Origin: Candidatus Woesearchaeota archaeon
GTDB taxonomy: Archaea; Nanobdellota; Nanobdellia; Pacearchaeales; GW2011-AR1
Length of the DNA stretch: 64,000 nt
Reading direction: 5' to 3'
Assembly: GCA_964466575.1 (NCBI GenBank)
Contig: CAYXNP010000003.1
Location: forward strand, 21,543-85,542
The position numbers and the translations under genes were made by a program. Positions 3,341-62,456 of this stretch are shown here, one piece after another. The notes beneath the pieces were generated by a model. The model saw only the letters and a list, made by a program, of their open reading frames with translations. It ran no database searches and was not told the origin of the DNA. The first letter of the stretch is position 1, and each line of letters opens with the position of its first letter.

Positions 3341-3373
3341 TTTTATCTAAATTTTTATATAGTTATTTTTATT

Positions 3374-4765
3374 TTGTTAATTATGGAAATTGATTTAAAT
3401 GAAGTTATGATTGGTGATTTACATTTGCATTCGAAATATTCCAGAGCAACGTCGATTTATTTGAGTTTTGAAAATTTAGTTAAGTGGGCAAAGATTAAGG
3501 GAATTAATTTATTAGGTACTGGAGATTTTACTCATCCTATTTGGTTTGAAGAGATAAAGAAGTTGGAAAATAATGGCAAAGGGATTTATTTCTTTGATGG
3601 TTTTCCTTTTGTTATTACAGGCGAGATTTCGTTTATTTATACGCAGGAAACATACAACAAATCGCGTTTAGATTCAGATTCCCACCACCACTCCCCAACC
3701 AACTCGCGACTTCACTCCACCACCATCGCGCGAGAAACCCCAAACGTGAAATCGCTCGCCCACCCGAGTGATAGGGAATTTACTGAATCTAAACGCTCGT
3801 TAGAAAGAAAAGGCAGGCGTGTTCATTTGAATGTTTTAGTGCCGAATGTTGAAGTTGCAGAGAAGATTAATTCTTATTTGGATACTAAAGGCAGAAGAGA
3901 TTATGACGGCAGGCCGATTTTTAAGATTTCCTGTGAAGAATTCGTTAGAGAGATGAAGAATATTGACGATAAAATTGAAATTATTCCTGCGCATATTTGG
4001 ACGCCCTGGTTTAGTATGTTTGGGAGCAAGTCAGGTTTTGATTCATTTAAGGAATGTTTTGGAGAAATGAGTGAGAAGGTTTATGCGATTGAAACTGGTA
4101 TGAGCAGTGATCCTGAAATGAACTGGCGTATTGGAGAACTGCATAATAAATCAATTGTTAGTTTTTCAGATAGCCATAGTTTTTGGCCGTTTCGTTTAGG
4201 ACGGGAGGCGACTATTTTTAAGAAGTTTGATTCTTATGATGAACTTGTTAGACAAATTAGAAAAAATGATTTTATTGGTACAATAGAAACAGATCCGGCT
4301 TATGGCAAGTATCATTATGATGGCCATAGGAATTGTAGTTTTTCATGTTCTTTTGAGAAAACTAAAAAATTAAATGGGCTTTGTCCAAAATGCGGAAAAC
4401 CATTGGTGATTGGCGTTGATTATCGTGTTGAGGAATTGGCAACTAATAAAATTGGTTTTAGGCCTCAATGTGCAAAACCTTTTTTTAAATTACTTCCTTT
4501 GCATGAAATTATTGTTTTAGCTAGTGGAGGAAGATTAGAAAGTAATTCAACATGGAATATTTATAATGATTTGATTTCAAAATTTGAAAATGAATTTAAT
4601 ATTTTGTTGAAAGTTTCTAAACCAGAATTTTTTAATAAAAATGTCGACGATAAACTTGTTGAATTGATTTTAAAAAATCGTGAAGGAAAGATTTATGTTA
4701 AGCCAGGTTATGATGGAGAGTATGGTGTTGCTGAACTTGGAGAAAAACAGGCGACGCTGGTTTGA
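3374..4765 (+). CDS. endonuclease Q-like PHP-domain nuclease carrying an in-frame repeat insertion
   Basis: GDLHLHSKYSRA, GTGDFTHP, RRVHLNVLVP, PAHIWTPWF, SFSDSHS..RLGRE, DPAYGKYHYDG, CPKCGKPL and GYDGEYG are collinear with archaeal EndoQ. ATG at 3383 is an alternative start. Confidence 0.8.
   Translation: MLIMEIDLNEVMIGDLHLHSKYSRATSIYLSFENLVKWAKIKGINLLGTGDFTHPIWFEEIKKLENNGKGIYFFDGFPFVITGEISFIYTQETYNKSRLDSDSHHHSPTNSRLHSTTIARETPNVKSLAHPSDREFTESKRSLERKGRRVHLNVLVPNVEVAEKINSYLDTKGRRDYDGRPIFKISCEEFVREMKNIDDKIEIIPAHIWTPWFSMFGSKSGFDSFKECFGEMSEKVYAIETGMSSDPEMNWRIGELHNKSIVSFSDSHSFWPFRLGREATIFKKFDSYDELVRQIRKNDFIGTIETDPAYGKYHYDGHRNCSFSCSFEKTKKLNGLCPKCGKPLVIGVDYRVEELATNKIGFRPQCAKPFFKLLPLHEIIVLASGGRLESNSTWNIYNDLISKFENEFNILLKVSKPEFFNKNVDDKLVELILKNREGKIYVKPGYDGEYGVAELGEKQATLV
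3662..3799. mobile_element. MITE-like insertion (family A core 3703-3758) lying in-frame inside the EndoQ-like gene
   Basis: Perfect 14-bp terminal inverted repeats: GCGTTTAGATTCAG (3664-3677) and CTGAATCTAAACGC (3783-3796). The C-tract-rich core is shared with other copies. Length is about 46 codons. Confidence 0.75.
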
Positions 4766-4770
4766 AGAGA

Positions 4771-4974
4771 ATTAGCTCGCTTCGCGAGATTATATGGCTA
4801 CGTATCCGCCTTGCGGCAGGATTTTTCGCTGAGAGGAAAATTAATGCAGAAAGATTTGAATATATTGTGGCTGATTTTATGGACAGGGTAATGAGATAAT
4901 TTATTTGCTTTTTGGAGCTGCTCGCGCCCACGCTTTGTTATTAATATTTAAGATTGTCAAAACGTAAACGCTCG
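4771..4974. repeat. composite repeat: family F module (about 4775-4850) plus family B copy (4921-4974)
   Basis: The F part aligns with 9843-9956. The B part, CTCGCGCCCACGCTTTGTTATTAATA..TTGTCAAAACGTAAACGCTCG, recurs at 12710, 47572 and 62320 (reverse complement). Confidence 0.7.
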
Positions 4975-5084
4975 TCTCTTATTTTGATAAATTTGTAATG
5001 AGCGTCAGAAGTTTTCTTTCCGCATTTTGGGCAATCTGTTTTTAAAGTGTAAGAATTACAATAAGAGCATTTTTTTAATTTCAT
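4941..5084 (-). CDS. nop10: H/ACA RNP protein Nop10 (47 aa, below the ORF-track cutoff)
   Basis: MKLKKCSYCNSYTLKTDCPKCGKKTSDAH.. matches the Nop10 zinc ribbon. Its ATG overlaps the stop of the upstream NUDIX gene (ATGA). The last ~11 codons lie inside repeat family B. Confidence 0.7.
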   Translation of the reverse strand: MKLKKCSYCNSYTLKTDCPKCGKKTSDAHYKFIKIRDERLRFDNLKY

Positions 5085-5503: not shown

Positions 5504-5572
5504 TTTGACTTTTTTTTGATAAATTTAAGTTTGAAATTTAGTATTTAAGTTTTTCGTATTTTAAATTGGGTT

Positions 5573-6374: not shown

Positions 6375-6563
6375 ATGGAAGAAGTAAGCGATATCCTTGA
6401 AAGATTAGAATCAGATATGGAGAAGTTATCAGGAGATGAAAATGCAACAAAGGCTTATATGACTGCCCTAGATACAATTCAAGAACTCATTAAAGAAGAT
6501 TACGATCCACATTCTATAAGAACTGCTTTAGCAACATATTGTCTTAGGAAATCAAGATCCTAA
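6375..6563 (+). CDS. hypothetical small protein
   Basis: ORF only; no recognisable motif. Confidence 0.3.
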   Translation: MEEVSDILERLESDMEKLSGDENATKAYMTALDTIQELIKEDYDPHSIRTALATYCLRKSRS

Positions 6564-7903
6564 ACTTTAACAACTTCTATTTCTAAATTCTTTTTTAGAA
6601 GATTAATGAAATCTTGTTCTTTTTCTTTATTGATAACTGCGCCCGCTGCAAACTCATGTCCTCCGACTTCTCCGCCTATTTGAATTATTATTGTATTTAG
6701 AATTTCTCTTATGTTTCTTCCGTTTTTACCGACGGTTCTTGCAGAAATTTTGATTTTTTCTGTGTTGTCATTGTAGTGAGCCATTGTGATAATTATTGTG
6801 CCTTCTTCGTATAATGAAGAGTAAGATAAGATGCTGGCTATGGTGCCAATTATTGTTTCTTTGATATTGTCTTTTGCGTTTATTATTACGAAACCTTTTC
6901 CTTCGACTTTATCTGAATTTTCAGAATTTGATACGAATTCTAATCCTGAAATAATTTGTCGTCTGTTTTTAGCGTGCAATGATTCTGCGCGTTTTTTGGC
7001 TTCTGACATTTCCAAACATAATTGTATTGCAGTTTCTGGTTCACCAAGTCTGGAACAAGCATTTATCATTGCGCTTAATTCCCGGGCATCTTCGAGTTTA
7101 TTAAAGAATTTTATGAGAAAGATATCTCCAATTATTTCTTCATGCTTTCTTTTAGGAACTCTTAATAAAATTGCTGTGACGAGTCTTGTCATTTCTGCTT
7201 CATCGAGTTCAATTATACTTTTGTATTTGCCGTTTTTTGGTGTAAGATTAGTTTCTCTTAATAATTCTAATGTGCCTTTTGTATCGCCTGTTATTCCTGG
7301 AATGTATGGGTTTGAAGAAAATTCAAGAACCCTATTTATTGGGCGAGTTGAAGGGTATAATAATAAACCTCTTTTTTTTATTATCTCGTTATCGTCGATG
7401 ATTCTTGAATTTATTTTGTCAACATTTTTCTCAAGACAATCTCCCACCATTCCTAATATTGCTAACTTTGCTATTTCTTTATCATAGTTTTTGTTGTTTA
7501 GGATTTCTTTGCAAAATAAATAAGTTAATCCTGAACTGCTGATTATTTCTTTGTTTTTTAATTGCGGGTTTATTATCTGGACATTTCCTGGAATTTCTTG
7601 AATTATTTCATGATGGTCAATAATGAAGACGTCTTGTTGATTTGATTTTGAAATGCAGTCTAAACTATTAGAAGCCAAGTCTAAGAAAAGAATGATTTTG
7701 TTTTTTGGAAGTTCATTGATTATTTTTTCTTCTAAATTATTTATGATTTTTACTGTGAATTGGATGTCTAATTTTTTTAATGTCTTTATCATTATTACTG
7801 CAGATGTGATGCCATCAGTGTCAAAATGACTTATTATACATACTTCTTTTTTCCTTGCAAGTTCTAAGAAATTATTTACTATTTGTTTAACCTCTTTTTC
7901 CAT
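6560..7903 (-). CDS. RecJ-like DHH/DHHA1 phosphoesterase (archaeal RecJ/GAN-type)
   Basis: ISHFDTDGITS, IIDHHE and GGHEFAAGA motifs. Confidence 0.8.
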   Translation of the reverse strand: MEKEVKQIVNNFLELARKKEVCIISHFDTDGITSAVIMIKTLKKLDIQFTVKIINNLEEKIINELPKNKIILFLDLASNSLDCISKSNQQDVFIIDHHEIIQEIPGNVQIINPQLKNKEIISSSGLTYLFCKEILNNKNYDKEIAKLAILGMVGDCLEKNVDKINSRIIDDNEIIKKRGLLLYPSTRPINRVLEFSSNPYIPGITGDTKGTLELLRETNLTPKNGKYKSIIELDEAEMTRLVTAILLRVPKRKHEEIIGDIFLIKFFNKLEDARELSAMINACSRLGEPETAIQLCLEMSEAKKRAESLHAKNRRQIISGLEFVSNSENSDKVEGKGFVIINAKDNIKETIIGTIASILSYSSLYEEGTIIITMAHYNDNTEKIKISARTVGKNGRNIREILNTIIIQIGGEVGGHEFAAGAVINKEKEQDFINLLKKNLEIEVVKV

Positions 7904-8360: not shown

Positions 8361-8477
8361 AGCCCCATAGTTTAGTGGTCAAGAATACGGCCCTTTGAAA
8401 GTAAGATGAGGATATTTTTAATTTCTCATTAGGAAAGAAGAAAGGCTGTGACCCCGGTTCGAATCCGGGTGGGGCTA
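8361..8477 (+). tRNA. tRNA-Gln (anticodon TTG) with a 44-nt intron (8399-8442) at the canonical 37/38 position
   Basis: Acceptor AGCCCCA/TGGGGCT, T-arm CCCGG-TTCGAAT-CCGGG. The anticodon stem CGGCC/GGCTG is split by the intron. Confidence 0.8.
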
Positions 8478-12622: not shown

Positions 12623-12872
12623 TGTGAATCAGTATCTCCAAACAGAGAAAAAATAGTTCTATAAATTAATCCTCCAAAGAATACCAATAGAATAAAATTC
12701 ACTCCTCTACTCGCGCCCACGTTTTGTTATTAATATTAAAAATTGTCAAAACATAAACGCTCGCTTAACGCTCGTCGAATTTATATTAATTATTAACAAA
12801 AATCTGCGAATGTAATGAGCAGCAAATTTCTTCCCTTGGAATGACAAAGACTCATCGGAGATACTCGTGAAT
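12623..12872. repeat. repeat block containing family B copy (12710-12763), with short inverted termini AGTATCTCC/GGAGATACT
   Basis: The B core is nearly identical to 4921-4974. 9-bp inverted termini sit at 12631-12639 and 12857-12865. Confidence 0.5.
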
Positions 12873-16374: not shown

Positions 16375-16475
16375 GAAAATTTAAAAGAATAAGGATATAT
16401 AAGTTTATTTATGAAGGCTTCAATCTATTTAGAAGTCTTGAAAGGGTTTATAAATATTAAAATTGTTATTAATCT

Positions 16476-18066: not shown

Positions 18067-18420
18067 TGTATAGGTTCATGACTATGTCCTCTTTATGTGT
18101 AAATTTTCTTGCTTCGCAAAGATTAATGGCTTCTACTCGCGCCTTGACTTTGCTATTGATAATTCAAATTGTCAAAGTCAAAACAACTCGGTCAGACTTC
18201 GTCACTGCTCTCGCGACCCCACTCAAACAAAGTTTTGAGGCGCCACTCGTGAAATCGCTCGTCTCCGCTAAGAAATTGTTAATCTATAATTCGGGATATA
18301 TTGTTATCATTTTTCTCGACGGAAAAATCTGGTGAAGCCGATTTTGAAGTCACAATAAATTTTCGAACGAAGTGGGAACTAATTTTTGGTTTAGCCCATG
18401 ACATATGTCATGAACCTACA
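18067..18420. mobile_element. composite MITE-like element with imperfect ~20-bp TIRs; contains family B-like (18136-18190) and family A (18210-18261) modules
   Basis: Left end is TGTATAGGTTCATGACTATGTCC; the reverse complement of the right end is TGTAGGTTCATGACATATGTCA. A related copy lies in inverted orientation at 61981-62456. Confidence 0.7.
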
Positions 18421-19781: not shown

Positions 19782-19956
19782 AAAATGATAACCTACAACG
19801 ATATTTACGAAGCTGCTAAAAAGAACCCATTGGTTCTTTTTGAATCTCCTCGAAACACTGAACGGCGATTTCTAATTGCCTCCGGTGAAATCGCAGCGCA
19901 GCTTCTTATAAATGGAGAATTAAAATGATAACCTACAACGATATTTACGAAGCTGC
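19782..19956 (+). repeat. 35-bp direct duplication of the GINS gene start (19782-19816 and 19922-19956) flanking a 105-bp hairpin-rich insertion
   Basis: AAAATGATAACCTACAACGATATTTACGAAGCTGC occurs twice. The insert carries the GCGATTTC..GAAATCGC and AAGAACC..GGTTCTT inverted repeats. Confidence 0.8.
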
Positions 19957-20479
19957 GAGAAAAGAGCGATATAGCGAGCAGCTTCAGAATCTTCCAAAAA
20001 ATTTTATTTTAGAAGTTGCTGATTATTTTAAAGATAAAAAGGAAATGGCATTAAAAGTGGATGATGTTTTTTCTGATGTTATAATTAAGACAAAGAAGCA
20101 ACTTGAGAATGCGATAACTTTGTTTAAGGAGTTGATGCTGCGAAGAAGAAAGAAATTATTGAATCTTGTGTTGATTGCTTCTGAGACAGGAATTAGCAAG
20201 CAGGATTTTGAAAATATGTTTGCTATTGAGAAAGAGTTGTTTGAAGAATTAATGAAATGCATTGAAGCAAGTGATAAAAAACTTAATGAGAATTTGAGCG
20301 GAAAAAAAGATGCGGATTTGAAAAATGAAATGATTGTTTTTAGTGATGGTGTTGAGGAGTTTGTTGGACTTGATGGAGAGAGAGTTGGACCGTTTGAAAA
20401 AGGGCAGATTGCAAATCTTCCGAGGGAAATTGCGTATATTTTAGTTGCTGACGGCAAGGCGGAAATTGTTGAGGAGTAA
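19925..20479 (+). CDS. GINS subunit (Gins51/Gins15-like), putative
   Basis: N-terminal ..YEAARKERYSEQLQNLPKNFILEVADYF.. and C-terminal B-domain-like ..GQIANLPREIAYILVADGKAEIVE. Confidence 0.55.
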   Translation: MITYNDIYEAARKERYSEQLQNLPKNFILEVADYFKDKKEMALKVDDVFSDVIIKTKKQLENAITLFKELMLRRRKKLLNLVLIASETGISKQDFENMFAIEKELFEELMKCIEASDKKLNENLSGKKDADLKNEMIVFSDGVEEFVGLDGERVGPFEKGQIANLPREIAYILVADGKAEIVEE

Positions 20480-22121: not shown

Positions 22122-22137
22122 AGATTTTAATGGAAAG

Positions 22138-22270
22138 GGCTACATTCTATGTTAAATTTTTTTGAGAGATTTTGTTTGTCATCATATGCCCACCCAAACT
22201 GTGTCCCACCCTAATATCAAACAAAATCTCTAATTTATTTGAATTGATTTTTGTAAGAGGGGATGTAGCC
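22138..22270. mobile_element. family D MITE (133 bp), TIR GGCTACAT..ATGTAGCC
   Basis: A near-identical 133-bp copy lies at 54777-54909. The internal long stem GAGAGATTTTGTTTG..CAAACAAAATCTC encloses CCCACCC..CCCACCC. Confidence 0.8.
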
Positions 22271-22273
22271 ATG

Positions 22274-22814: not shown

Positions 22815-22886
<72 letters not shown>

Positions 22887-22960
22887 TTTATATTATCGAG
22901 CAAAGCGGGATAATCTTGATTCTGGATTTAAAGTCACTTAAACGCTATATCATTATAGAA

Positions 22961-23040
22961 GTCGGGGGCGAGTGATTTCACGAGTGTCGTCTCAAAACTT
23001 TGTTTGAGTGGGGTCGCGAGGTTAAATCCCTCTGCAGGCT
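22961..23040 (+). pseudogene. duplicated 3' fragment of tRNA-Thr, interrupted in the T-loop by a 52-bp family A element (22969-23020)
   Basis: GTCGGGGG + insert + GTTAAATCCCTCTGCAGGCT repeats the 3' end of the intact gene, which lies 74 bp upstream. Confidence 0.8.
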
Positions 23041-23045
23041 TTTTA

Positions 23046-26901: not shown

Positions 26902-29900
26902 AATTTTCATTTGCGAAACTTACTAAGGTGCCCGAAACTCGCGACCCCACTCCTTCCCAAATATTTGAGACCCGCCCAAACGTGAAATCGCTTGCCCACC
27001 TATTTGAATCCCTAATACTAAGAAGTCCTGTTCATGATATTTCTAAGTGCCCACCCACCCCTAAATCTTCGTCCCACCCTAAATGGGTGGGTCCTGTTAG
27101 TGGAATTGCTAAGCCTATTAGTTTAACATTCATCTTGTTTTTCTTAATCGGAATTTTTATTTTGAATATAGCTTTAGTAAATTCGCAATATATTCCCCCA
27201 AGTTATCAAGCAGGTTATGGTTATGGAGGTGCGAATGATTATTGGAATTCTGCGAGTTATTCTCAAGCTCAAACTTATAGACCAGGATTAGGAACTAATT
27301 ATCCTTATTATAATTCAAATCAAAATTTGTATAGAGATCCTTATTATGGAGGAGATTATAGTTATAATAATCCTAATAGTAATTATCAATCTAGCAGTAT
27401 TTATTCTAATAGAAATCAATATTATAATTCATATTCAAACATGTATCCGACTTCATCGTATGGGAGAAATCCTTATTTATCGTCGGGATATGGGGGATAT
27501 TATCAGCCTTTTCCTTCGCAAACTTATTTACAAGGACAGGGAATTGATTTGTATAGGAATTTTGACGACGAGCAATGCGGTTTAGGACAGGATTTTTTAA
27601 TTCAGCAGGCGCCGTTTGGATGTTCGCCGAGCGTTGTTAGAAGTGATTTGTTAGAAGAACAAAATGTGCCTGTGTTTTGCCAGCTTGCTGCGACAAAATT
27701 AAATCCTTTGATTGATGTTGATGCGATTTATTCAATGGAATTTCGCCGCGATAAGAATTTTCCTGAAGATGTTGTTGGTGTTGGGTTTCATCCTGCAAGA
27801 GCTGCAGTAAGGCAAACATCTTATCTTGGCAGTTCATCTTCTTATGGAGCTAGTTTTTCCGGCAGAACAGGCAGTTTGCTTAATTCAGCTGTTATGAATA
27901 ATGTTGGCTATGCAGTTGTAGTTTTGAAACAGCAGCCAAATGAAAAAGATATGCCTGATTCGATTTCTGGAAATCTTACTGCTGTTTTAAGGTATGATGT
28001 TAAGAATGCATTTGGTGTTGGGAATGTTGAATTTGCATTGCCGCAAGTTGATGATTTATCATGGAATGAAGATTATAGGAAATATAGTTTTTGGAAAGGC
28101 AGGGGATTTTTGCGGGCCGATTTAGTTGAGCCTGACAGAGCAGTTATTTCAATAATGTCTGACCAGAATTTAAAAATTGATACTGTGAGTTTGACTGTTG
28201 GACAAACTGCTCGAGAAGTTAGAATGCCTGGATTTTATTGTTTTGCAAAAGCAGAAGTTAAGTTAGATAGAATTGGATTTCCTGATACGACTGCCCGATT
28301 AAGGATTGATAATGATTATGTTGATTTAGTCGCTGACCAAAGATTTTTAGATGATAGATGCAGGGTTCAGTTTGTTGAAAAGAATGGCTTGTCTGAATTT
28401 GCGCAGATAAGATGCAGTGAAGACGACGGTGCGACAAGATATTATGAATTTCAGAAAAGTCCGCGAGTTGTTTTAAAAATTAATGATGTGGAGGGAACTT
28501 ACAAAGTTGGAGAGCCATTGTCTTTGTTTGGAACTTCGTATTATGTTGTCAGGGCAATTGAGCAAAACGATGAAAATGGAAAGATTTCAATTGTTTTAGA
28601 TTCTTCTTTGACGCCTTATAATTATAGAAGCTATCCAAGTTTGACGTCGAGTTCGAGTTCGTATTTGTATAATAATAATTTGAGAATTGATTTAGGAGAA
28701 ACATTGGATTTGTCTGATGATAATAAAATTCAATTTTTAAGTTTGTCAGAAGGTGTAAATGAAGACTTTTCTCAAGAAAATGATGTGGATGTTGGTAATT
28801 ATAATTCTGTGTTTAAAGAGAATTATGATAATGCTATTGCTGATTATTCCAGAGTTGCAAGTGATTTTGCGAATGAGCTTATGGAACCAGGTTTTGGCGA
28901 AGCAGGGAAAACTTATGGAGAAGAAGCATTGGAGAGAGCTGCTTACTTGGCAGAGGCGACAGGACAGATATTAACAAGCAAAGAGTTTATTGATAAAATG
29001 AAAGACGAGTATGGTGAATTAGAAAATGAAAATGAGCTTCGGCTTTTGGCAGACGAGTCTTTGTTTTATTCAGAGGAAGAAACAAGCGGTGTTATGATTG
29101 ACGGAAGGTTGCATATTATTACTTTTTTAGGAGCAAGCAAACCGAGGTTAAGTGATTTTAGCGCAAAGTTTTTTGTAAAAAATACTCAAACAAATAAAGT
29201 TGATGATTTTGTTTTAGGAAAAGATGGCAGGCGAGAATTTGATAGAGGAAATAATCGGGATCAAATTATTCTTAGATATTTAGATGAATTTTCTGCTGAT
29301 ATAGATTATATCGGAGAAGAATATATTGATGCTAATTTGAGCAGAAGAAATATTTCAAGAAGGTTTACTGTTTTTAGAGACAGGCCGATTACTATTGGTA
29401 ATGGGAAATACACCCTTTCTGTTGAGAATATTAATTTTAAGAATGTTGCTTATGTAAGAATTGAGCCAAAGTTGGAAGATATTAGGACAGAGGCGAATTT
29501 TAGCATTAATATTGGAATTGAAAAACGGGCGATTAAATTGAGTCCTGAACAAACTGAAAATAGGATTAATAAAGCGAATGAGACGCTTGAAAAGTTGAAT
29601 AAGATTTCTGATGGACTTGGAAAAGTTGTGAAAGGAACAAAGGCAGCGTGTCTTGCTACTGGCGGGTTTTTGATTACAAAGAATTTCCTGCAGAATTTGG
29701 GAGGCAAGCAAATCGCAAGACAGCAAATTATGAGAAGCCAGGGAGGCTGGCAAGAGTTTTGCAGACAGGCAATTGCAGATAATGATGGAAATTATGCAAG
29801 CATGGATGATTGTTTTAATAAAAATGCAGATGCAATTGACGCCGACGTTGAAACACTTAATGGATTTATACAAAAGCAAAACGATGAGATAAAAGCTGCA

Positions 29901-32816: not shown

Positions 32817-32837
32817 TTCTAAATAAAATTAGCGGCC

Positions 32838-33062
32838 CGCTCCAAAGTCGCTCGCGTTATTTATTGCAGCTCGCGACCTCACTCGAACAAAGTTTTGAGG
32901 CAACACTCGTGAAATCGCTCATCAAAACCGACTTTGTCAAGTTCTTCGCTTAAAGAAATTATGAACCCAAAAATTCTGAAATATTTTGTTATCAGGTTTT
33001 CTCGATGAATAATCGTGTCAAAAGGTCGATTATAAGTTAATAATTCTCGCGACTTTGGAGCG
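32838..33062. mobile_element. MITE-like element with 14-bp TIRs CGCTCCAAAGTCGC/GCGACTTTGGAGCG, carrying a nested family A core (32870-32921)
   Basis: TIRs at 32838-32851 and 33049-33062. Internal modules are shared with 54960-55260 and 18190-18290. Confidence 0.7.
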
Positions 33063-33171
33063 AGCAACTTCACGAGAACTAATTTGAAATATTAATAGCG
33101 AGTGGGGTTAGGAGTAGAGTGATTTTTAGGATTCTAAAGATTTTTATATGAATAATTTCTGGTATTTCTAT

Positions 33172-33314
33172 GCGGGAATGCCGGATGTCGCTTATATACT
33201 TAAGCTCGTCCATCACCCCAAATATTGAAGCGGGAATGCCGGAGAACTCGCGACCTCACTCGAACAAAGTTTTGAGGCGAGACTCGTGAAATCGCTCGGG
33301 TCAAACGGGCGAAG
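33172..33314 (+). pseudogene. two partial 5' copies of tRNA-Leu, the second split in the D-loop by a family A element (33247-33298)
   Basis: GCGGGAATGCCGGA occurs at 33172. GCGGGAATGCCGGAG + insert + GGTCAAACGGGCGAAG occurs at 33230-33314. Both are compared with the intact gene at 33337. Confidence 0.8.
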
Positions 33315-33336
33315 AAGTTTTCTCATTCACCGAATG

Positions 33337-33421
33337 CGGGAATGCCGGAGTGGTCAAACGGGCGAGGTTTAGGACCTCGTGTGCTTAGTGCCTACCTAGG
33401 TTCGAATCCTAGTTCCCGCAT
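33337..33421 (+). tRNA. tRNA-Leu (anticodon TAG), long variable arm
   Basis: Acceptor GCGGGAA/TTCCCGC, anticodon arm CGAGG-TTTAGGA-CCTCG, T-arm CTAGG-TTCGAAT-CCTAG. Confidence 0.85.
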
Positions 33422-33479
33422 CATGCAATCAGAGATTGCATTAATTAAATTGGGATGAGAACCGACGGTTCGACGAGCA

Positions 33480-33685
33480 ATTTCGTGTTAAGGGCGTAAG
33501 TGGAAAGAGGTGGCGAGTGATTTCGCGAAAGTAAAAATTCAAATATTTATGGGTGTGGCAGTGAGCGGGGTCGCGAGTAGAGATTGCGAGCATCCTAGTT
33601 CCCGCATTACTATTGAACGAAGTGAAATAGTATGTGAATTATAATTCTTAATAGAGGAGTGGGTTAGGGTTTCCTAGTTCTCGCA
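33480..33685. repeat. repeat block with reverse-oriented family A copies and two partial 3' copies of tRNA-Leu (33594-33606, 33673-33685)
   Basis: CGAGTGATTTCGCG..GGGGTCGCGAG at 33514-33577. ATCCTAGTTCCCGCAT and TCCTAGTTCTCGCAT repeat the tRNA 3' end. Confidence 0.7.
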
Positions 33686-33739
33686 TAAACACTTTTCTAA
33701 TGCAATAATCTATAAAAACACTCTAATCAATTTTTAATT

Positions 33740-39682: not shown

Positions 39683-39823
39683 AGCGGAGACCGGGACTCG
39701 AACCCGGGAAAATCTGCTAACTGCAATCAGCCTTGAGCCTATTTCTAGGGAGAGACTGTGAAGGAGAACCGTTAGGTTCTTCTCATCTGCAGGCAGACGC
39801 AGTAGCCGCTGTGCCATCTCCGC
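39683..39823 (-). tRNA. tRNA-Cys (anticodon GCA) with a 68-nt intron (39719-39786) at 37/38
   Basis: Acceptor GCGGAGA/TCTCCGC, T-arm CCGGG-TTCGAGT-CCCGG. The anticodon stem TCTGC/GCAGA is separated by the intron. Confidence 0.75.
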
Positions 39824-39841: not shown

Positions 39842-39959
39842 TGGCCCGGACAGGATTTGAACCTGCGACCCCCTGCTCTCTCCAGCTTTCTCTCCGAGGT
39901 CTCTTTTCTAAAGAGAGCTCTAGAAGGCAGGTGCTCTATCCAGGCTGAGCTACCGGACC
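39842..39959 (-). tRNA. tRNA-Arg (anticodon TCT) with a 43-nt intron (39878-39920) at 37/38
   Basis: Acceptor GGTCCGG/CCGGGCC, D-arm GCTC..GAGC, T-arm GCAGG-TTCAAAT-CCTGT. The anticodon stem CCTGC/GCAGG is split by the intron. Confidence 0.8.
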
Positions 39960-48370: not shown

Positions 48371-50158
48371 ATGGCATTTATTGTTAAGAAAAAAATTTCA
48401 GGAAAAGATTATTATTATCTTCGGGAAAGCAAGCGAGAAGGCAAGAAAGTGAAATCTATTTTTTTAGCTTATTTAGGCAAGGATAAGAAAGAGGCTGAGA
48501 AGAAAATGAAAGAGATTTTGGAGAAACGAGAATCAGGCCTTAAAGTGCCCGAAACTCGCGACCCCACTCCTTCCCAAATATTTGAGACCCGTCCAAACGT
48601 GAAATCGCTCGCCCACCCATCTGAATCCCTAAAACATATCGAAGCGGTTGATCAGAAACAATCAAAACCGACAAGAGAAAATATTACAATAGAAGAGCTT
48701 TCAAATTTTTGTAAAAGGAAAGGTTTTGTATTCCGGAGTTCAGATATTTATGGAGGGTATTCTGGGTTTTGGGATTTTGGGCCATTGGGAGTTGAATTGT
48801 TTAATAATATTAAGAATGATTGGTGGAATTTTTTTATTCGGCGACGTGAAGATGTTGTTGGAATTGAAGCTTCGATAATTTCTCATCCAAGAACTTGGAA
48901 AGCGTCTGGGCATATTGAAAATTTTAATGATGTTTTTGTTAAATGCAAGAAATGTGGGAAGACAAATAAGTTAGATGAGAATGAACTTGGAAAGGTTAAG
49001 TGTGATTCGTGCGGCGGCGAATATGAGGGCAAGGGTAAATTTAATTTGATGTTTAAGACAAATGTTGGACCGTCAGGAGTTGGCGAGCAAGATGATTCTG
49101 TTGCGTATCTTAGAGGGGAAACTGCCCAAGGAATGTTCATGGATTTTAAACTTGTTCAACAAACTTCTCGAATGCAATTACCATTTGGAATAGCTCAAAT
49201 TGGAAGATGTTTTAGAAATGAAATTTCTCCGCGAGACTTTTTATTTAGAAGCAGAGAATTTCATATTGGTGAGTTTGAATTTTTTATCCATCCAGATGAA
49301 AAGAAATGCGAGTTGTTAGATAAGAAACATTTAGATGTTAAATTTAGATTTCTTAGCGAGGAGTCTCAAAAATCAGATTCAGCGTCGGAGCTTAAGGAAG
49401 TTACAATTAAAGAAATATTTGATAAAAAAAAGTTAGATGGGTGGCATGCTTATTGGCTGGCAGAGCAGATTATTTGGTTTAAGAAACTTGGGCTTGATGA
49501 GATTAAAATTCGGGAGCATACAAAGGAAGAGTTAAGTCATTATAGTTCAGCTACGTTTGATATTGATTATGAATATCCTTTTGGAAGCAAGGAAGTTGCT
49601 GGAATTGCTAATCGCGGCCAATTTGATTTGATTCAACACCAAAAAGAAAGCAAGGAAAGTTTTGAAATTTTCGACGAGAAAACAAAAAATAAAGTTGTTC
49701 CAAGAGTTATTGAGCCGACTTTTGGAATGGAAAGAGTTTTTCTTGCTTTGTTGACTAAAGCATATACTTTTGATTCTGAACGAGATAATGTTGTTTTGAA
49801 ATTGCCTCCAAGATTGGCGCCAATTAAAGCAGCAGTTTTTCCAATTGTAAAAAAGCCAGAGTTTGAAAAGATTTCAGAAGAAATTGTAAAAGATTTGAAA
49901 AAATATTTTAATGTTGTTTATGATAGAAGCGGAAGTATTGGTAGAAGATATTCGCGGAATGATGAAATTGGAACACCTTATTGTATAACTATCGACGAGA
50001 AATCTGAGACATTAAAATATGTTACAATTAGAAATCGTGATGACACAAAACAGATTAGGGTTAAGATTAAAAATTTGTCAGAGATTTTAAAAAAATTAAT
50101 TAATGACGAAATTGAATTTGAGAAAGCAGGCAAGATAGTGAAGACAAGAGTTAAGTGA
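48371..50158 (+). CDS. glyS: glycyl-tRNA synthetase (archaeal/eukaryotic dimeric type) with a ~105-aa N-terminal extension that includes a repeat insertion
   Basis: RKGFVFRSSDIYGGYSGFWDFGPLGVEL, RGETAQGMF, FRNEISPR and EPTFGMERV, plus an anticodon-binding C-terminus. ATG at 48371 (the ORF track starts at GTG 48359). Confidence 0.9.
   Translation: MAFIVKKKISGKDYYYLRESKREGKKVKSIFLAYLGKDKKEAEKKMKEILEKRESGLKVPETRDPTPSQIFETRPNVKSLAHPSESLKHIEAVDQKQSKPTRENITIEELSNFCKRKGFVFRSSDIYGGYSGFWDFGPLGVELFNNIKNDWWNFFIRRREDVVGIEASIISHPRTWKASGHIENFNDVFVKCKKCGKTNKLDENELGKVKCDSCGGEYEGKGKFNLMFKTNVGPSGVGEQDDSVAYLRGETAQGMFMDFKLVQQTSRMQLPFGIAQIGRCFRNEISPRDFLFRSREFHIGEFEFFIHPDEKKCELLDKKHLDVKFRFLSEESQKSDSASELKEVTIKEIFDKKKLDGWHAYWLAEQIIWFKKLGLDEIKIREHTKEELSHYSSATFDIDYEYPFGSKEVAGIANRGQFDLIQHQKESKESFEIFDEKTKNKVVPRVIEPTFGMERVFLALLTKAYTFDSERDNVVLKLPPRLAPIKAAVFPIVKKPEFEKISEEIVKDLKKYFNVVYDRSGSIGRRYSRNDEIGTPYCITIDEKSETLKYVTIRNRDDTKQIRVKIKNLSEILKKLINDEIEFEKAGKIVKTRVK
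48542..48634 (+). repeat. family A-long element lying in-frame inside the GlyRS N-terminal extension
   Basis: 93 nt with 6 mismatches versus 26925-27017. It encodes KVPETRDPTPSQIFETRPNVKSLAHP in both genes. Confidence 0.85.
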
Positions 50159-54776: not shown

Positions 54777-54909
54777 GGCTACATCCCAAATTAAGTTTTC
54801 TTGAGAGATTTTGTTTGTTATCATATGCCCACCCAAACTGCGTCCCACCCTAATACCAAACAAAATATCTGATTTAATTAAATTGATTTTTGTAATGTGG
54901 GATGTAGCC
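54777..54909. mobile_element. family D MITE (133 bp), second copy
   Basis: Same length, TIRs and core as 22138-22270. Confidence 0.8.
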
Positions 54910-54959: not shown

Positions 54960-55260
54960 CGATATCATTAGCGGCTCGCGACCCCACTCGAACAAATTTT
55001 TGAGGCGACACTCATGAAATCGCTTGTCAAAACTGACTTCGTCAATGAAAACCACCAGCGGGTTTCTCAATTCGCAAGCCCACTCGCTTTTGGTTTTGAG
55101 GCGAAGCTCGTGAACATTGCTCACACTTCCTGCAACCAGACTTCGTCAAGTTTTTCGCTCAAAGAAATTGTTAATGTTAAAAACATCTTGAGTGTTGAGG
55201 ATTATTATTTTTGTGATTCACGAACGTTAGTGAGTGCTAATGTTAAATTGAAAGTTGACT
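54960..55260. repeat. mosaic repeat block: family A core (54975-55026), a degenerate A-like copy (about 55070-55125), a GACTTCGTCAAG..AAAGAAATTGTTAATG module and a CACGAACG..AGTGAGTGCTA module
   Basis: The modules recur at 32870-32960, 18190-18290, 38420-38470 and 20740-20770. Confidence 0.65.
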
Positions 55261-56856: not shown

Positions 56857-57378
56857 TCAAGTTCTAACCCAATCAACTTCATAATAAGTTATTGAACCTT
56901 CTTCGTCGAGGATTGCGAGGAGAAGTTTCTTTTTTGTTGAATGTGCGACTCGATTTTTCGCTGAGAATTCGTGCCAGGATTGTTTGTTGTTTTCGTGGTC
57001 GACAAAACAAACCCATTTTGCGTGTTCATTTCCAGGACGTTTGCCTTTATTGTAAATCCTGAAATCCGCGCCGAATTTTAAGGCGGTTTTAACTATGTAG
57101 CCTTTTTCGCGAAGGTCCTTGAAGACAGGATATTTTAAAGGAAATTTTTTATCAATTCTTTTAAGTTTATTCATTAATTCTTTTTGTGATATTTGCTTGT
57201 TTCTTGAATCTAATACTTCAAGTTTTCCATTTTCTGTTAAGAACATTGTTTCAGATAAAGAGTAAATGATTTTGTCTCCTTTTTTTTCGCCGAACGCACT
57301 TTTTGTTAAAAGAGAGTGGGCGTTGCTATCATTGCTTGTAATGCTTTTTCCGACAAGGTATGCTTGTATTTTTTCCAT
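56857..57378 (-). CDS. endA: tRNA-splicing endonuclease (EndA)
   Basis: YPVFKDLREKGYIVKTALKFGADFRIYNKG...HAKW motif. The start is moved to ATG 57378. Confidence 0.85.
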   Translation of the reverse strand: MEKIQAYLVGKSITSNDSNAHSLLTKSAFGEKKGDKIIYSLSETMFLTENGKLEVLDSRNKQISQKELMNKLKRIDKKFPLKYPVFKDLREKGYIVKTALKFGADFRIYNKGKRPGNEHAKWVCFVDHENNKQSWHEFSAKNRVAHSTKKKLLLAILDEEGSITYYEVDWVRT

Positions 57379-57677
57379 TATTTGTATTTTTACATCAAGA
57401 TGCAGAAGCATCGATGTTTGCCAAACTTCGTTTAATTATAAATTAAGGAAAGAAAGATATTTAAAGTTTGACTTATATCTATTTGAGTAAAATGAATACT
57501 AACAATAATAAATTTTATATGGAATTTAACAAGTTGTTAGTTGGGATTCTCTCCTGCAAGATTTTGCAATAATTTTTGTCTGACCTTGCGTTATTAATTT
57601 TTAAGTAAGGTTGGACTCATTATTGACTATGTCGTCGGTTAGAGAATTCTATATAAAATTGTAAGGAGGAAAATAAA

Positions 57678-57960: not shown

Positions 57961-60900
57961 ATGAAAAAAGCAAAGAAAGTTGTAAATGTAAAAGGAAAAG
58001 AAGATAAATTAGATTTTTCTAAAATTGAATCGAAATGGCAGAAGTCTTGGGAAGCTAAAAAAGTGTTTGAAGTGAAAGAATCTTCGAAGAAGAAATTTTA
58101 TATTTTGGATATGTTTCCTTATCCTTCTGGAGCGGGTTTGCATATGGGGCACGCTTTTGTTTTTTCGCTTGGAGATATTTATGCGAGATTCAAGAGGCTT
58201 CAAGGTTACAATGTTCTTTATCCGATTGGTTACGATTCTTTAGGTTTGCCTGCAGAGAATGCTGCAATAAAATCTAAAACTCCTCCGAAAAAGTATACAG
58301 AGGATTCTATAAAGAATTTTATGAAACAACAGAAAGCAATGGGGTGGAGTTATGATTGGAGCAGATTAGTGAATACCAGCGACGCTGAATATTATAAATG
58401 GGACCAATGGATTTTCTTGAAAATGCTGGAGAAAGGAATTGCTTATAGAAAAAAATCTGCGGTGAATTATTGCAGGAAGTGCGACACGGTTTTGGCGAAC
58501 GAGCAGGTTATTAATGGAAAGTGCTGGCGTCATGAAGATGTTAATGTTGAAATTAAACATCTTGAGCAGTGGTTTTTTAAGATTACAGATTATGCTGAGG
58601 AATTGTTAGATGGTTTGAATAAAATTGATTGGCCTGAGAAAGCTAAGAAGCTGCAAAAGAATTGGATTGGAAAATCTTACGGAACGGAAGTTGACTTTGA
58701 GATTGAAAATAATGGGAAGGAGAACAAGATTTCAAATGTTGTGATTGTCCATGGATGTCCCTCTAATGTAGAGAAGGCGATGAATGAAAAAACGAGAACT
58801 TATGATAAACATTGGATGCCTTGGCTGAAAAGAGAATTAGGTAAAAATGGAATTAAAACAGAAATTCCTTTAATGCAAACCCCTTGGAAACCTAATTATT
58901 TTGAATGGAAAAAAGAATTTGACAAATTAAATATAAATGAAAATACCATTTTGATTGGACATAGTTGTGGTGGAGCTTTTTTAGTGAGGTGGCTTGATGA
59001 AACAAAGAAAAGAATTAAGAAATTGATTTTAGTTTCTCCTGGGAAATCTGGAAGGGAAGGTAGAAAAGTTTTAACAGATTTTTATGGAAATAAAACTATA
59101 CATGGAATTGAGAGATTTGTGAAAGAACAAATAGTTGTTTATATTTCCGACGATGATATCCCTTATCATATTCCAAGTGCTTATGAATATCAAAAAGAAT
59201 TGAATGCAAGAGTTGTTCGTTTTGACAAGGGATATGGACATTTCACTATTGAAGGCATGGGGACTGAAGAATTTCCAGAATTGCTTGATGAAGTTTTAGG
59301 AAAAAAATCTTGGCCGATATTTACAACTCGCATCGATACAATTTATGGGGTTACTTTTATGGTTGTAAGCGCTCAGCATTCAAATTTGATGGAGATTGTA
59401 ACTGACAGACAGAAGAAAGAAGTTGAAAAGTTTTTAAAAAAAATTAAATCTGTTTCTGAAAAAGAAATGGATGAGCTTGAGAAAGAAGGAGTTTTTACTG
59501 GAAGCTACGCGATAAATCCTTTGACAAAAGACAAAGTTCCGATTTATGCGGGGAATTTTGTCGTCGCTGATTATGGCTCTGGAATGGTTATGGCTGTGCC
59601 TGGCCACGACCAAAGAGATTATGAGTTTGCTGTAAAATATAATTTACCTATTAAAAAAGTTATTGAGCCGCTTGATAGAGAATTCAATTTGAAAGATGAA
59701 GGAAGAGCGTTTGAAGGAAAAGGACGTTTGATTAATTCAAGGACATATAATAATCTGGACAGCGAAAACGCGAAAGAAAATATTACAAAAGATTTGCAAA
59801 AGAAAAGGATTGGCAGGAAGCAGATTCAGTTTCGGTTGAAGGATTGGCTTGTGTCGAGGCAGAGATATTGGGGGACGCCGATTCCAATTATTTATTGTGA
59901 TAAGTGCGGTATTGTCGCTGTTTCTGAAAAAGAGCTGCCTGTTAAACTTCCAGAAAAAGTAAAATTTGGCAAAGGGAATCCGATTGCGACTTCAAAATCT
60001 TTTGTTGAAGTTAAATGTCCAAAGTGTCATGGAAAGGCCAGAAGGGAAACAGATACGATGGACACTTTTGTTAATTCGTCTTGGTATTATTTGCGTTATG
60101 CAGATTCCAAAAATAAAAATAAAATCTTCGACGAGAAGAAAGCGAATTATTGGTGTCCAATTGACCAGTATATTGGCGGGCCAGAACATGTTACAATGCA
60201 TTTGATTTATATTAGGTTTTATACAAAGTTTTTGCGAGATCTCGGACTTTTAAAGTTTGACGAGCCTGCTTTGAAATATTTTACGCAAGGTTTAGTTTAT
60301 GGTTCAGACGGAGAAAAAATGTCAAAGTCTAAAGGAAATATTGTTGAACCTCTTGATATGATTAAGAAATATGGGGCTGATACCTTGAGATTGGCGCTCA
60401 TATCATTAGCATCGCCGGATAAGAATTTTTCTTGGGATGAAAAAATTGTTATAGGAAGCAATAAATTTTTGATTAATGTTTTTAATTATTTTTCAAAAGT
60501 TGAAAATGGAAAAACTTCTAAGAAAATTGAGAGCAAGTTGAATAAAGCAATAAAAGAAATTACTGATGATGTTGAAAATTTTAGGCATTATCTTGCGATT
60601 ATTAAAATAAAGCAATTGTTTAGTTATTTAGTTGATGAAAAAATCAGTAAAGACGATGCAGGCAAGTTTTTGAAACTTTTGCATATTTATTGCCCATTTA
60701 TTACAGAAGAGCTTTGGCATAATTTAGGTAATAAATCATTTATTAGTTTAGAGATTTGGCCAATTTGCGACGAGAAAAAGATAGATGAGAAACTTGAAAG
60801 ACAGGAGGAACAAATTGATAATTTAATTAGAGATGTGAATAATATTCTGAAGATTCTTGAGTCTAAGGGAGAAAAGAAAAATAGCGTTAAGGTTTTTGCG

Positions 60901-61053
60901 ATTCCGAATGAAGTTGATTTGTATAAGAGCGAAATCGAAATAATAAAAAAAAGAGTTAGTTTGGATGTTGAAGTTTTAGATGTTAAGGATGCGAAGAAGA
61001 TTGGCAAAGTGATTAAGGCGAAGCCGGGCAAGCCAGGAATTTATTTGGAGTGA
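57961..61053 (+). CDS. leuS: leucyl-tRNA synthetase (bacterial type) carrying an inserted alpha/beta serine-hydrolase domain
   Basis: HMGH, WIGKSYGTEVDF, TTRIDTIYGVTF, AVPGHDQRDYEF, RQRYWGTPIP and KMSKSKGN are collinear with bacterial LeuRS. Confidence 0.95.
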   Translation: MKKAKKVVNVKGKEDKLDFSKIESKWQKSWEAKKVFEVKESSKKKFYILDMFPYPSGAGLHMGHAFVFSLGDIYARFKRLQGYNVLYPIGYDSLGLPAENAAIKSKTPPKKYTEDSIKNFMKQQKAMGWSYDWSRLVNTSDAEYYKWDQWIFLKMLEKGIAYRKKSAVNYCRKCDTVLANEQVINGKCWRHEDVNVEIKHLEQWFFKITDYAEELLDGLNKIDWPEKAKKLQKNWIGKSYGTEVDFEIENNGKENKISNVVIVHGCPSNVEKAMNEKTRTYDKHWMPWLKRELGKNGIKTEIPLMQTPWKPNYFEWKKEFDKLNINENTILIGHSCGGAFLVRWLDETKKRIKKLILVSPGKSGREGRKVLTDFYGNKTIHGIERFVKEQIVVYISDDDIPYHIPSAYEYQKELNARVVRFDKGYGHFTIEGMGTEEFPELLDEVLGKKSWPIFTTRIDTIYGVTFMVVSAQHSNLMEIVTDRQKKEVEKFLKKIKSVSEKEMDELEKEGVFTGSYAINPLTKDKVPIYAGNFVVADYGSGMVMAVPGHDQRDYEFAVKYNLPIKKVIEPLDREFNLKDEGRAFEGKGRLINSRTYNNLDSENAKENITKDLQKKRIGRKQIQFRLKDWLVSRQRYWGTPIPIIYCDKCGIVAVSEKELPVKLPEKVKFGKGNPIATSKSFVEVKCPKCHGKARRETDTMDTFVNSSWYYLRYADSKNKNKIFDEKKANYWCPIDQYIGGPEHVTMHLIYIRFYTKFLRDLGLLKFDEPALKYFTQGLVYGSDGEKMSKSKGNIVEPLDMIKKYGADTLRLALISLASPDKNFSWDEKIVIGSNKFLINVFNYFSKVENGKTSKKIESKLNKAIKEITDDVENFRHYLAIIKIKQLFSYLVDEKISKDDAGKFLKLLHIYCPFITEELWHNLGNKSFISLEIWPICDEKKIDEKLERQEEQIDNLIRDVNNILKILESKGEKKNSVKVFAIPNEVDLYKSEIEIIKKRVSLDVEVLDVKDAKKIGKVIKAKPGKPGIYLE
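58735..59310 (+). other. RBBP9/YdeN-type serine-hydrolase domain inserted in-frame in LeuRS (about aa 259-450)
   Basis: VVIVHG, HWMPWLKREL, GHSCGG (GxSxG), LILVSPG, ISDDDIPY and GYGHF appear in the order typical of this family. Boundaries are approximate. Confidence 0.7.
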
Positions 61054-61178: not shown

Positions 61179-61309
61179 GCTCGCAAGTTCGTTATTCCCA
61201 CCGCCGCTCCCCCAACTCACGACCCCACTCATCCTCCATCGCTCACCCCCAAACGTGAAGTCGCTCGCCACCCACCCGAACGTTAGTTAATAAAACGAAC
61301 ATTGCTCGC
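61179..61309. mobile_element. MITE-like element with TIR GCAAGTTCGTT/AACGAACATTGC and a C-tract-rich family A-like core (61216-61267)
   Basis: The termini and core (CTCACGACCCCACTC..CGTGAAGTCGCTCG followed by CCACCCACCC) were read directly. Confidence 0.6.
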
Positions 61310-61980: not shown

Positions 61981-62456
61981 TGTAAGCAACTGAAATATGT
62001 TAATAGCTAACCGAAGAATTACTTCAACTCGCGCCCACACTCGAACTCATTATTCTTCAAAATTGTCTACTCGTGTAAACTCTTGCACTTCGTTCGAAAA
62101 TTAATTACGACTTCAAATCTGTAAGGCACTGGGGGCACCAAGGTTCCCCTTACACTAACCTCTCCTTTGAGTTAGCTTGACAATCAACCTCCATTAAACT
62201 TGCAGGATTTTCCGCCGAGAAAAGATGATAACAACATCTAATCTAAGGGAAAGTGTGTGAGAGAAAACCGCAGGTTGTCTTCATTCTTGATTAACAATTT
62301 CTTAGTGAAGAGCCTAAGCCGAGCGTTTACGTTTTGACCAATAGATAAATAATAACAAAACGTGGGCGCGAGTTGAAGCAAGGCTCGAAGCAATTAATTT
62401 TTGCGAAGCAAGAAAATTTACACATAAAAAAGGGGACATATGTCATGGTCTTATAC
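61981..62456. mobile_element. 476-bp composite repeat element flanked by a perfect 16-bp direct repeat (AAGATAGGGAATAGTG at 61965-61980 and 62457-62472)
   Basis: The duplication was read directly. The element contains a B-like module (62028-), the 22297-22335-type module, a B copy (62320-62372, reverse complement) and a right end homologous to the 18067 TIR. Confidence 0.8.

Follow-up and report, generated by a model that had tools for sequence, protein, structure and literature searches.

The 93-nt block and its host genes

The present study addresses a short repeat, termed E, in a 64,000-nt stretch of DNA from a Candidatus Woesearchaeota archaeon (contig CAYXNP010000003.1 of assembly GCA_964466575.1; hereafter the window). 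The window has a G+C content of 32% and carries the archaeal housekeeping genes TFB, S3Ae, S8e, Gins51, EndA, EndoQ, GlyRS and LeuRS. The organism belongs to the DPANN archaea, and contigs near-identical to the window come from groundwater metagenomes. A 93-nt block that contains E is found in the GlyRS gene and in a giant open reading frame (ORF), and a related insertion interrupts the endonuclease Q (EndoQ) gene. These loci are arranged as follows.

3383..4765, plus strand: EndoQ gene
3651..3809, plus strand: nested EndoQ insertion of 159 nt (53 codons), absent from the ~97% identical locus L077
26898..32816, plus strand: giant ORF of 1972 aa, with no Pfam match
26925..27017, plus strand: composite copy in the giant ORF, codons 10-40
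48371..50158, plus strand: GlyRS gene (ORF 48359/48371-50158)
48542..48634, plus strand: composite copy (carrier repeat and E) in the GlyRS linker, encoding KVPETRDPTPSQIFETRPNVKSLAHPSESLK

A sequence-only reading of the window had put the differences between the GlyRS copy and the giant-ORF copy at 6 of 93 positions and had assigned both the same peptide in the same frame. Both statements hold: 48542-48634 and 26925-27017 align without gaps with 6/93 mismatches, and each host ORF reads its copy in frame as KVPETRDPTPSQIFETRPNVKSLAH with P or L as the next residue. The similarity of the pair ends 1-2 nt beyond either edge (a 95-nt pair in the repeat-family scan). The EndoQ ORF reads ..ARETPNVKSLAHPSD.. 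over 3703-3770, in the same frame as the other two across the shared 3' part, as had also been proposed, and has ..TPNVKSLAHPS in common with the GlyRS and giant-ORF copies. The 17-mer CCAAACGTGAAATCGCT has 6 matches in the window at no more than 3 mismatches, against 0.15 expected. The likeness of the block copies is not a product of chance. What does the common frame of these copies mean? The earlier reading had noted a stop in one alternative frame (ACG TGA), and this stop is present, but the constraint was understated because the remaining sense frame is also closed (ATT TGA). Since the 93-nt block has only one open sense frame, its sense copies share that frame, and frame sharing among them is uninformative.

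The GlyRS ORF consists of an N-terminal domain (~48371-48535), a variable linker with the element and a catalytic core that begins at ~48680. The first ~55 residues (MAFIVKKKISGKDYYYL..AYLGK..) are fused to the core as one ORF in more than 20 relatives, whose linkers are Lys/Glu-rich and vary in length. The window linker is ~30 residues longer than those of 13 aligned relatives, and the extra residues are the element. No ATG, GTG or TTG in frame separates the element from the conserved core motif. AlphaFold predicts three strands and a helix for the N-terminal domain with pLDDT values of 87-90, and the element is modeled at 40-48 and lacks secondary structure. Contig L076 (99.56% identical) and contigs from four groundwater runs support both junctions of the GlyRS copy. 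Sequence comparison supports the location of the GlyRS element inside a real coding region. As a separate observation, the N-terminal domain (MAFIVKKKI.GKDYYYL..S.REGKKVKS..AYLGK), which has no Pfam match, is kept in more than 20 DPANN relatives, and a domain of this type is joined to a non-GlyRS partner in P0028.

The EndoQ insertion is nested, with an outer hairpin element (ATCGCG-TTTAGATTCAG...CTGAATCTAAA-CGCTCG) around an inner E core. In an alignment with the P. furiosus enzyme, residues 8-82 and 145-454 of the window protein are covered, and the insert is located between residues equivalent to P. furiosus 77 and 81. The 53 residues are absent from ten EndoQ homologues, including the 96% identical P0029; the closest EndoQ proteins are labelled Pacearchaeota or Nanoarchaeota. 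In the AlphaFold model, the insert is placed at a beta-hairpin turn between strands 74-87 and 144-153, with a mean pLDDT of 26-31. The low pLDDT of the EndoQ insert at this turn and of the GlyRS insert in its linker fits the disorder and exposure for which the sequence-only reading had suggested a structure prediction. A position of the EndoQ element inside a real coding region is likewise supported by these alignments. Predicted tryptic peptides that would cover the inserts or fall within them include ESGLKVPETR, DPTPSQIFETRPNVK and SLAHPSESLK for GlyRS, and ETPNVK and SLAHPSDR for EndoQ. Two further EndoQ proteins, P0045 and P0058, contain other Ser/Thr/Glu-rich inserts of ~16 residues (SQEAEPLAS..SSTSSQR and GQEIKSLDT..NSTSKIR, respectively) at the identical turn. 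The turn appears to be a recurrent insertion spot.

The ATG of the giant ORF overlaps the stop codon of the preceding ORF (ATGA). The giant ORF of the relative P0150 contains the carrier without the E core, a net difference of 60 nt that leaves the start and the frame unchanged (MKFSFAKLTKVP-T-HPFESLI..). Translation of the giant-ORF copy is likely rather than established, because an in-frame GTG near 27087 is an alternative start. Thus, the earlier claim that three proteins carry the peptide stands for GlyRS and EndoQ, where the element appears to lie inside the coding region, and is likely but unproven for the giant ORF.

The E core, its hairpin and its tRNA neighborhood

Judged from its sequence, the block in GlyRS and in the giant ORF is composite, with an E core nested in a C-rich carrier repeat, because P0150 keeps the block flanks without the core. 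Other members of the carrier repeat family are located at 16130, 22187, 54826 and 27044-27090. The E core, part of a GC-rich repeat, spans 52-57 nt and consists of a 5' box (CTCGCGACCCCACTC; with its variation, CTCGCGACC(C/T)CACTC), a variable middle (N17-36) and a 3' box (CGTGAAATCGCTCG). In total, 94 distinct E cores were collected from the window, 12 species-representative DPANN genomes and 63 metagenome stretches. The 12 reference genomes with the exact E pattern belong to the Woese-, Pace- and Nanoarchaeota. Over the 94 copies, the boxes are near-invariant and the middles range from 17 to 36 nt. The E pattern has 0 matches in the viral contigs of IMG/VR. Rfam returned only tRNAs and no family for E, both at gathering thresholds over the whole window and at E-values up to 5 over 32800-33700. 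The window contains 11 E cores, 8 on the plus strand and 3 on the minus strand, in addition to degenerate copies.

3703..3758, plus strand: E core inside the EndoQ insertion (..ETPNVKSLAHPS..)
18210..18261, plus strand: intergenic E core of subfamily B
26938..26994, plus strand: E core of the giant-ORF copy
32870..32921, plus strand: intergenic E core
33247..33298, plus strand: E core that splits a tRNA-Leu 5' fragment (1-15 / E / 17-32) just upstream of the intact tRNA-Leu, as in L018
48555..48611, plus strand: E core of the GlyRS copy, with 5' box CTCGCGACCCCACTC and 3' box CGTGAAATCGCTCG
54975..55026, plus strand: intergenic E core, followed by a degenerate copy at 55071-55114
61216..61267, plus strand: A-like intergenic E core downstream of LeuRS
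22969..23020, minus strand: E core 83 nt downstream of and antisense to tRNA-Thr, splitting a duplicated tRNA-Thr 3' fragment (22963-22970 / 23021-23043)
33061..33114, minus strand: degenerate E core
33514..33577, minus strand: E core antisense to tRNA-Leu and downstream of it, with a second copy of the tRNA-Leu 3' end (33594-33607) after it
33474-33487: partial E box near tRNA-Leu

Related repeats of the window, including transposable elements of the miniature inverted-repeat type (MITEs) with terminal inverted repeats (TIRs), are the following.

4919..4976, plus strand: related 58-nt hairpin element with termini CTCGCG...CGCTCG and different arms
Starts at 12710, ~18136 and 47572 (plus strand) and 62320-62372 (minus strand): other copies of the 4919-type hairpin
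22131-22271 and 54777-54909: MITE of 133-141 nt with TIR GGCTACAT, inner inverted repeat GAGAGATTTTGTTTG and the C-rich repeat TGCCCACCCAAACTG.GTCCCACCCTAAT at its center
27044..27090, plus strand: second C-rich repeat, of the family of 16130, 22187 and 54826, read through in frame at the giant-ORF N-terminus

The LeuRS ORF near the A-like copy (57961-61053, 1030 aa) contains a Ser_hydrolase / alpha-beta-hydrolase domain (residues ~282-440) inserted between its catalytic and editing domains.

The two boxes of E pair over 13 nt, of which 8 pairs are Watson-Crick; all 13 positions pair if antisense wobble and tandem G.A pairs are counted. On the sense strand, the helix is broken by C.A and pyrimidine-pyrimidine mismatches, whose antisense counterparts are G.U wobbles and tandem G.A pairs (C-GA-[GCGAUUUCAC/GUGGGGUCGC]-GA-G). 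A hairpin is predicted for all 94 cores, and the antisense RNA hairpin is predicted to be the more stable one in 92 of the 94 copies (mean of -15.6 versus -9.3 kcal/mol for the sense strand). Related families of the window keep the terminal hexamers CTCGCG...CGCTCG and have different yet complementary arms (4921-4974 and the outer element of EndoQ). Because the arms differ but remain complementary, it is the hairpin, not the arm sequence, that is conserved. A scan for the wider superfamily by arm complementarity was too strict (6 copies recovered) and was not used. The strand bias of the E cores is matched by the CTCGCG...AAACGCTCG family (4 plus, 1 minus); the GC skew of the window is positive throughout, and the bias of the hairpin repeats is independent of gene orientation. 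We rejected a CRISPR array, as the copies are dispersed and tandem units abut with only 1 base between them. Inspection by eye also gave no support for C/D-box, H/ACA or K-turn readings, with no C/D boxes, no ACA and no 3-nt bulge beside the G.A pairs.

Over the time in which strains diverge, E copies are acquired, lost and duplicated in tandem, and individual copies are missing from strains that are 96-99% identical. L077, which is ~97% identical to 3243-6047, lacks exactly the 159 nt of the EndoQ insertion (3651-3809) and also the 58-nt element 4919-4976, in place of which it reads ATT. Cbf5 contains one copy in L004 and two in L025, and aIF5B contains one (L032), two (L070) or three (L046). 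L073 and L041, which are 95-97% identical to the window over 14.7-23.2 kb, exhibit further repeat indels. The 141-nt MITE 22131-22271 is absent there (L073 is 95% identical), and an additional tandem hairpin unit is located there at ~18185. L073 also contains a classical 204-nt MITE (6556-6759; window ~16410-16418) with the 11-nt TIR GCTCTGTTGAA and the 9-bp target duplication TATGAAGGC; an E core forms the center of this MITE, and the window represents the empty site. At the three filled/empty junctions inspected for a target duplication (the 159 nt of EndoQ, 4919-4976 and E in the carrier), none is consistent, and 1-3 host bases are replaced. Two side observations concern the same strains. 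L073 has an 842-nt insert at window ~15190. At the start of the Gins51 gene, a 41-nt segment is present twice (19782-19822 and 19922-19962), 140 nt apart and 95% identical; because the BLAST segments of both L073 and L041 overlap there, a ~140-nt tandem duplication is suggested in the window that the relatives lack.

Part of the E family is linked to tRNA genes. Within 250 nt of a tRNA gene lie 24 of the 94 copies, and 19 of these 24 are downstream of and antisense to the tRNA in many genomes (Thr, Leu, Lys, Gly, Gln, Asp, Asn, Cys, Tyr, Ser and Met). The layout is stereotyped: an intact tRNA is followed by 20-100 nt, the antisense E hairpin and a duplicate of the tRNA 3' end. In 15 of 15 downstream arrangements examined in detail, a copy of 10-26 nt of the tRNA 3' end comes after E, often with trailer bases. 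What precedes E in this setting is either a piece of the T arm or the hairpin GAGAACC-N3-4-GGTTCGA. Read on the antisense strand, E comes immediately after GGTTCGA in at least 5 loci (four reference or metagenome loci and the window tRNA-Leu), and other copies follow near variants of this motif or different sequences. The inner helix CACGARUGC...GCAAYGAGUG is common to tRNA-linked copies of distant genomes. Two copies (33247 and L018) are instead upstream of tRNA-Leu in the same orientation, within a duplicate of the first 32 bases of that tRNA, which they interrupt in the D loop at 15/16. Both the upstream and the downstream arrangement are found at the window tRNA-Leu, together with more 5' and 3' fragments. 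The tRNA-linked arrangements are located as follows.

Window: 22815-23043 and 33172-33686
Loci: L001, L003, L005, L006, L008, L011, L012, L018 and L027
Further loci: L031, L034, L059, L061, L062, L064, L065 and L073

The tRNA arrangement looks like the footprint of a targeting mechanism or like a conserved cis function of the antisense hairpin. Candidate origins are long target duplications, miniature integrative elements and insertion into hairpin loops. Two other interpretations were dropped. The pieces beside E are not split or trans-spliced tRNA halves as in Nanoarchaeum, because they form no T arm and adjoin intact genes. A tRNA-integrating virus or plasmid was rejected because no integrase lies near tRNA-Thr or tRNA-Leu, whose neighbors are S3Ae and TFB, and because the IMG/VR contigs lack the pattern. 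Separately, the window contains three tRNA genes with 45-70 nt introns unrelated to E (8361-8477, plus strand; 39683-39823 and 39842-39959, minus strand) and the EndA gene, which encodes a single alpha-type tRNA splicing endonuclease (56857-57411, minus strand).

Genic copies and the fate of the encoded peptide

Intergenic E copies are far more numerous than genic ones. For the genic census, the E copies in the collected loci were required to have 90 or more open codons on either side. This left 13 copies in 6 independent genes, all of them in frame and stop-free, with 0 out of frame. This outcome supports the earlier proposal that genic copies are filtered for an open, tolerated frame, for which a check of the frame distribution had been advised. 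The inserted units measure 159, 57, 54 and 48 nt, plus a net 60 nt, all of which are multiples of 3. Sense copies are found in EndoQ, in the window GlyRS and in Cbf5/TruB of archaeon GW2011_AR19, where the 57-nt unit is inserted between ..DDLGKEL and GIGAHMLELRR, once in L004 and twice in L025. Antisense copies are found in aIF5B/IF-2 after NKIDNISGW, with units of 54 and 48 nt (one in L023/L032, two in L070 and three in L046), in PheRS-beta (L045) and in a MiaB-like radical-SAM enzyme (L055). The host proteins were identified by Pfam or PDB searches. The antisense copies use all three frames (RAISRE.., DERFHE.. and PSDFTN..) and yield unrelated peptides.

These observations are probably best explained if the 93-nt block is a small non-autonomous mobile hairpin repeat of a DPANN (Pace-/Woesearchaeota-like) groundwater archaeon, whose genic copies are kept as an in-frame, disordered passenger peptide. 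The E core is formed by two near-invariant boxes paired around a variable middle, nested in the carrier (GlyRS and the giant ORF) or in another hairpin (EndoQ). Inserts tend to occupy loops of pre-existing hairpins, among them those of other repeats and, in fragments of tRNA genes, the D and T loops. Most copies are located between genes. From the pattern of surviving copies, we infer that a genic copy persists if it adds whole codons, has a stop-free frame and occupies a permissive site such as a linker or a surface turn. The sense copies would all use the sole open frame of the block and thereby encode the same peptide, a presumably translated Pro/Ser/Thr/Glu-rich disordered passenger without a function of its own.

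Several points weigh against this explanation. The census detects out-of-frame interruptions with long flanks and misses copies that destroyed a gene beyond recognition. RNA runs were searched for the locus and none contains it, so that translation is deduced from the DNA. The giant ORF may start at the internal GTG, downstream of the repeats. In L076, a 13-nt deletion (48658-48670; L076 3541-3560) that lies 21 nt downstream of the element disrupts the reading frame where the N-terminal part leads into the GlyRS core; the explanation is a faulty contig, a pseudogene or a dispensable N-terminal extension. The intact GlyRS version, free of the deletion, is found in four other runs. Finally, the conserved boxes, the better antisense RNA hairpin and the stereotyped tRNA layout suggest a conserved cis function beyond a 'selfish' reading. 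It is conceivable, though not probable, that the E hairpin is a cis module of an undescribed DPANN-wide mobile or recombination system that targets tRNA 3' ends or loops. The functional strand would then be the antisense one, with its 10-bp helix bracketed by tandem G.A pairs, and the copies in protein genes would be off-target. Such a system could be one of structure-guided or RNA-guided integration that duplicates 10-34 bp of the tRNA 3' end.

Could the element lie outside the translated region in GlyRS and in the giant ORF? In that case, the long ORFs would reflect read-through of C-rich repeats with few stops, and the true starts would lie downstream. The C-rich repeats are indeed stop-poor, the in-frame GTG of the giant ORF lies at the end of the 27044-27090 repeat just upstream of a hydrophobic, signal-anchor-like segment, and the L076 frameshift falls between the element and the GlyRS core. 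However, GlyRS has no start codon between the element and the core motif, and its N-terminal domain is fused to the core in more than 20 relatives. Moreover, the ATG of the giant ORF overlaps the upstream stop, and P0150 keeps the frame over the 60-nt indel. Read-through is also inapplicable to EndoQ, Cbf5, aIF5B, PheRS-beta and the MiaB-like enzyme, in which the insert is internal. We consider this alternative improbable.

A further alternative is that the genic copies behave like introns and are excised from the mRNA, perhaps through cleavage of a bulge-helix-bulge (BHB) motif by the tRNA splicing endonuclease, in which case no peptide would be produced. Introns are present in tRNAs of the organism, which also has an EndA gene, E forms a hairpin, and E splits tRNA fragments at 15/16, 53/54 and 58/59, positions at which non-canonical tRNA introns occur. 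Among archaeal protein genes, BHB introns are known from Cbf5 alone (PMC2738675), and Cbf5 is one of the host genes. Nevertheless, the E site in Cbf5 differs from that of the crenarchaeal cbf5 intron, which is located at the catalytic Asp codon (PMC2738675). An explicit search for a BHB motif (3-nt bulge, 4 bp, 3-nt bulge) at the mapped boundaries gave 0 candidates in EndoQ and GlyRS, and the candidates in Cbf5 are weak and would remove 59 or 61 nt, breaking the frame. The tRNA pieces with E are non-functional fragments beside intact genes. Splicing would constrain neither length nor stops, whereas all inserts are in frame in both orientations; 6 of 6 interrupted genes that are in frame and stop-free have a probability of ~0.001 under a model of RNA removal. 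This pattern argues for inserts that would be translated and not spliced, and removal from the mRNA is quite unlikely.

Has the shared peptide been co-opted as a functional module, such as an epitope, a localization signal or an interaction tag? The sequence-only reading had raised this idea on the grounds that PNVKSLAHP is common to three ORFs of one genome. Two of the copies are 94% identical. Nothing in our data favors it. Conservation of the boxes is seen in the DNA and does not depend on frame or strand, and the peptide identity is therefore ascribed to recent DNA copying. The peptide varies with frame and strand, the insert is predicted to be disordered and is absent from strains that are 96-97% identical, and intergenic copies far outnumber genic ones. 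A search with the 31-aa peptide against 1.84 billion representative proteins returned one spurious hit and no real match. We regard a common functional tag as very unlikely and not supported. Repeat-induced chimeric joins in a metagenome-assembled genome are the least credible source of the genic copies: short-read contigs of public runs do break within the element, but the independently assembled L076 has the element at the same site, each junction is crossed by contigs from four runs, and in-frame copies in the same gene recur across assemblies (L004/L025 and L023/L032/L046/L070).

Comparison with known repeat families

The Rickettsia palindromic elements (RPEs) are hairpin repeats found in frame in many housekeeping genes (PMC10969869), and they appear to be the functionally closest known case to the E family. 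Both families would comprise short multi-copy hairpin repeats of non-coding type that are inserted in frame in unrelated housekeeping genes, with a fixed open frame, permissive sites and presence or absence among relatives (PMC10969869). For E, the hosts are EndoQ, GlyRS, Cbf5, aIF5B, PheRS-beta and the MiaB-like enzyme. Empty sites are provided by P0029/L077 for EndoQ, by P0150 for the giant ORF and by 13 GlyRS relatives, and structure prediction places the inserts at a beta-hairpin turn (EndoQ) and in an inter-domain linker (GlyRS). The two families also differ. E resides in DPANN archaea and has a ~55-nt core, whereas RPEs reside in alpha-proteobacteria and measure ~150 bp. Unlike RPEs, E is inserted in both orientations and several frames, nests in repeats and forms tandem arrays; its boxes are near-invariant across very divergent genomes, and it exhibits a strong association with tRNA 3' ends and no target duplications. 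Because the hosts belong to different domains of life, no membership by sequence is claimed, and the likeness would be one of functional class, with sequence relatedness not expected.

Classical prokaryotic MITEs have terminal inverted repeats and a target-site duplication, and are moved in trans by a transposase of an insertion sequence (IS). E resembles them as a small, non-autonomous, multi-copy repeat that is polymorphic between strains. It differs from them in the absence of a consistent target-site duplication at three junctions, and perhaps also in its imperfect inverted boxes (8/13 Watson-Crick). No transposase or integrase was found among the scanned window ORFs, and no parent IS was seen in the window.

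REP/BIME, REPIN and IS200/IS605-derived palindrome families are described mainly in bacteria. Like E, they would combine hairpins whose feet are conserved and whose loops vary with arrays of mosaic and tandem type, a strand bias and no target-site duplications. In several loci E follows the same short motif (TTCGA), and the target motif of E is not constant over all copies. No gene for a RAYT, TnpA or Y1 (HUH) transposase was seen in the 64-kb window and the 8-kb loci. Archaeal BHB introns are similar to E as short structured inserts in tRNA-like sequences and Cbf5, with EndA present. In contrast to these introns, E has no BHB motif, obeys frame and stop constraints, occurs in both orientations and is hosted by tRNA pieces that are fragments. 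In the literature that we searched on DPANN and archaeal in-frame repeats, MITEs and mobile BHB elements, no account of the E family was found. By analogy, E may be viewed as an archaeal counterpart of RPEs that is undescribed in this literature.

DPANN genomes are usually regarded as streamlined. The E family would indicate that these ultra-small genomes carry active miniature repeats that remodel essential translation and repair proteins by in-frame insertion. For annotators, the signature CTCGCGACCYCACTC...CGTGAAATCGCTCG may account for unusual insertions, extended N-termini and contig breaks in metagenome-derived DPANN genomes. The natural alleles with 0, 1, 2 or 3 copies in EndoQ, Cbf5 and aIF5B would serve as ready tests of how essential enzymes tolerate a disordered insert. 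Furthermore, the tRNA-linked layout of E points to an undescribed mobilization machinery.

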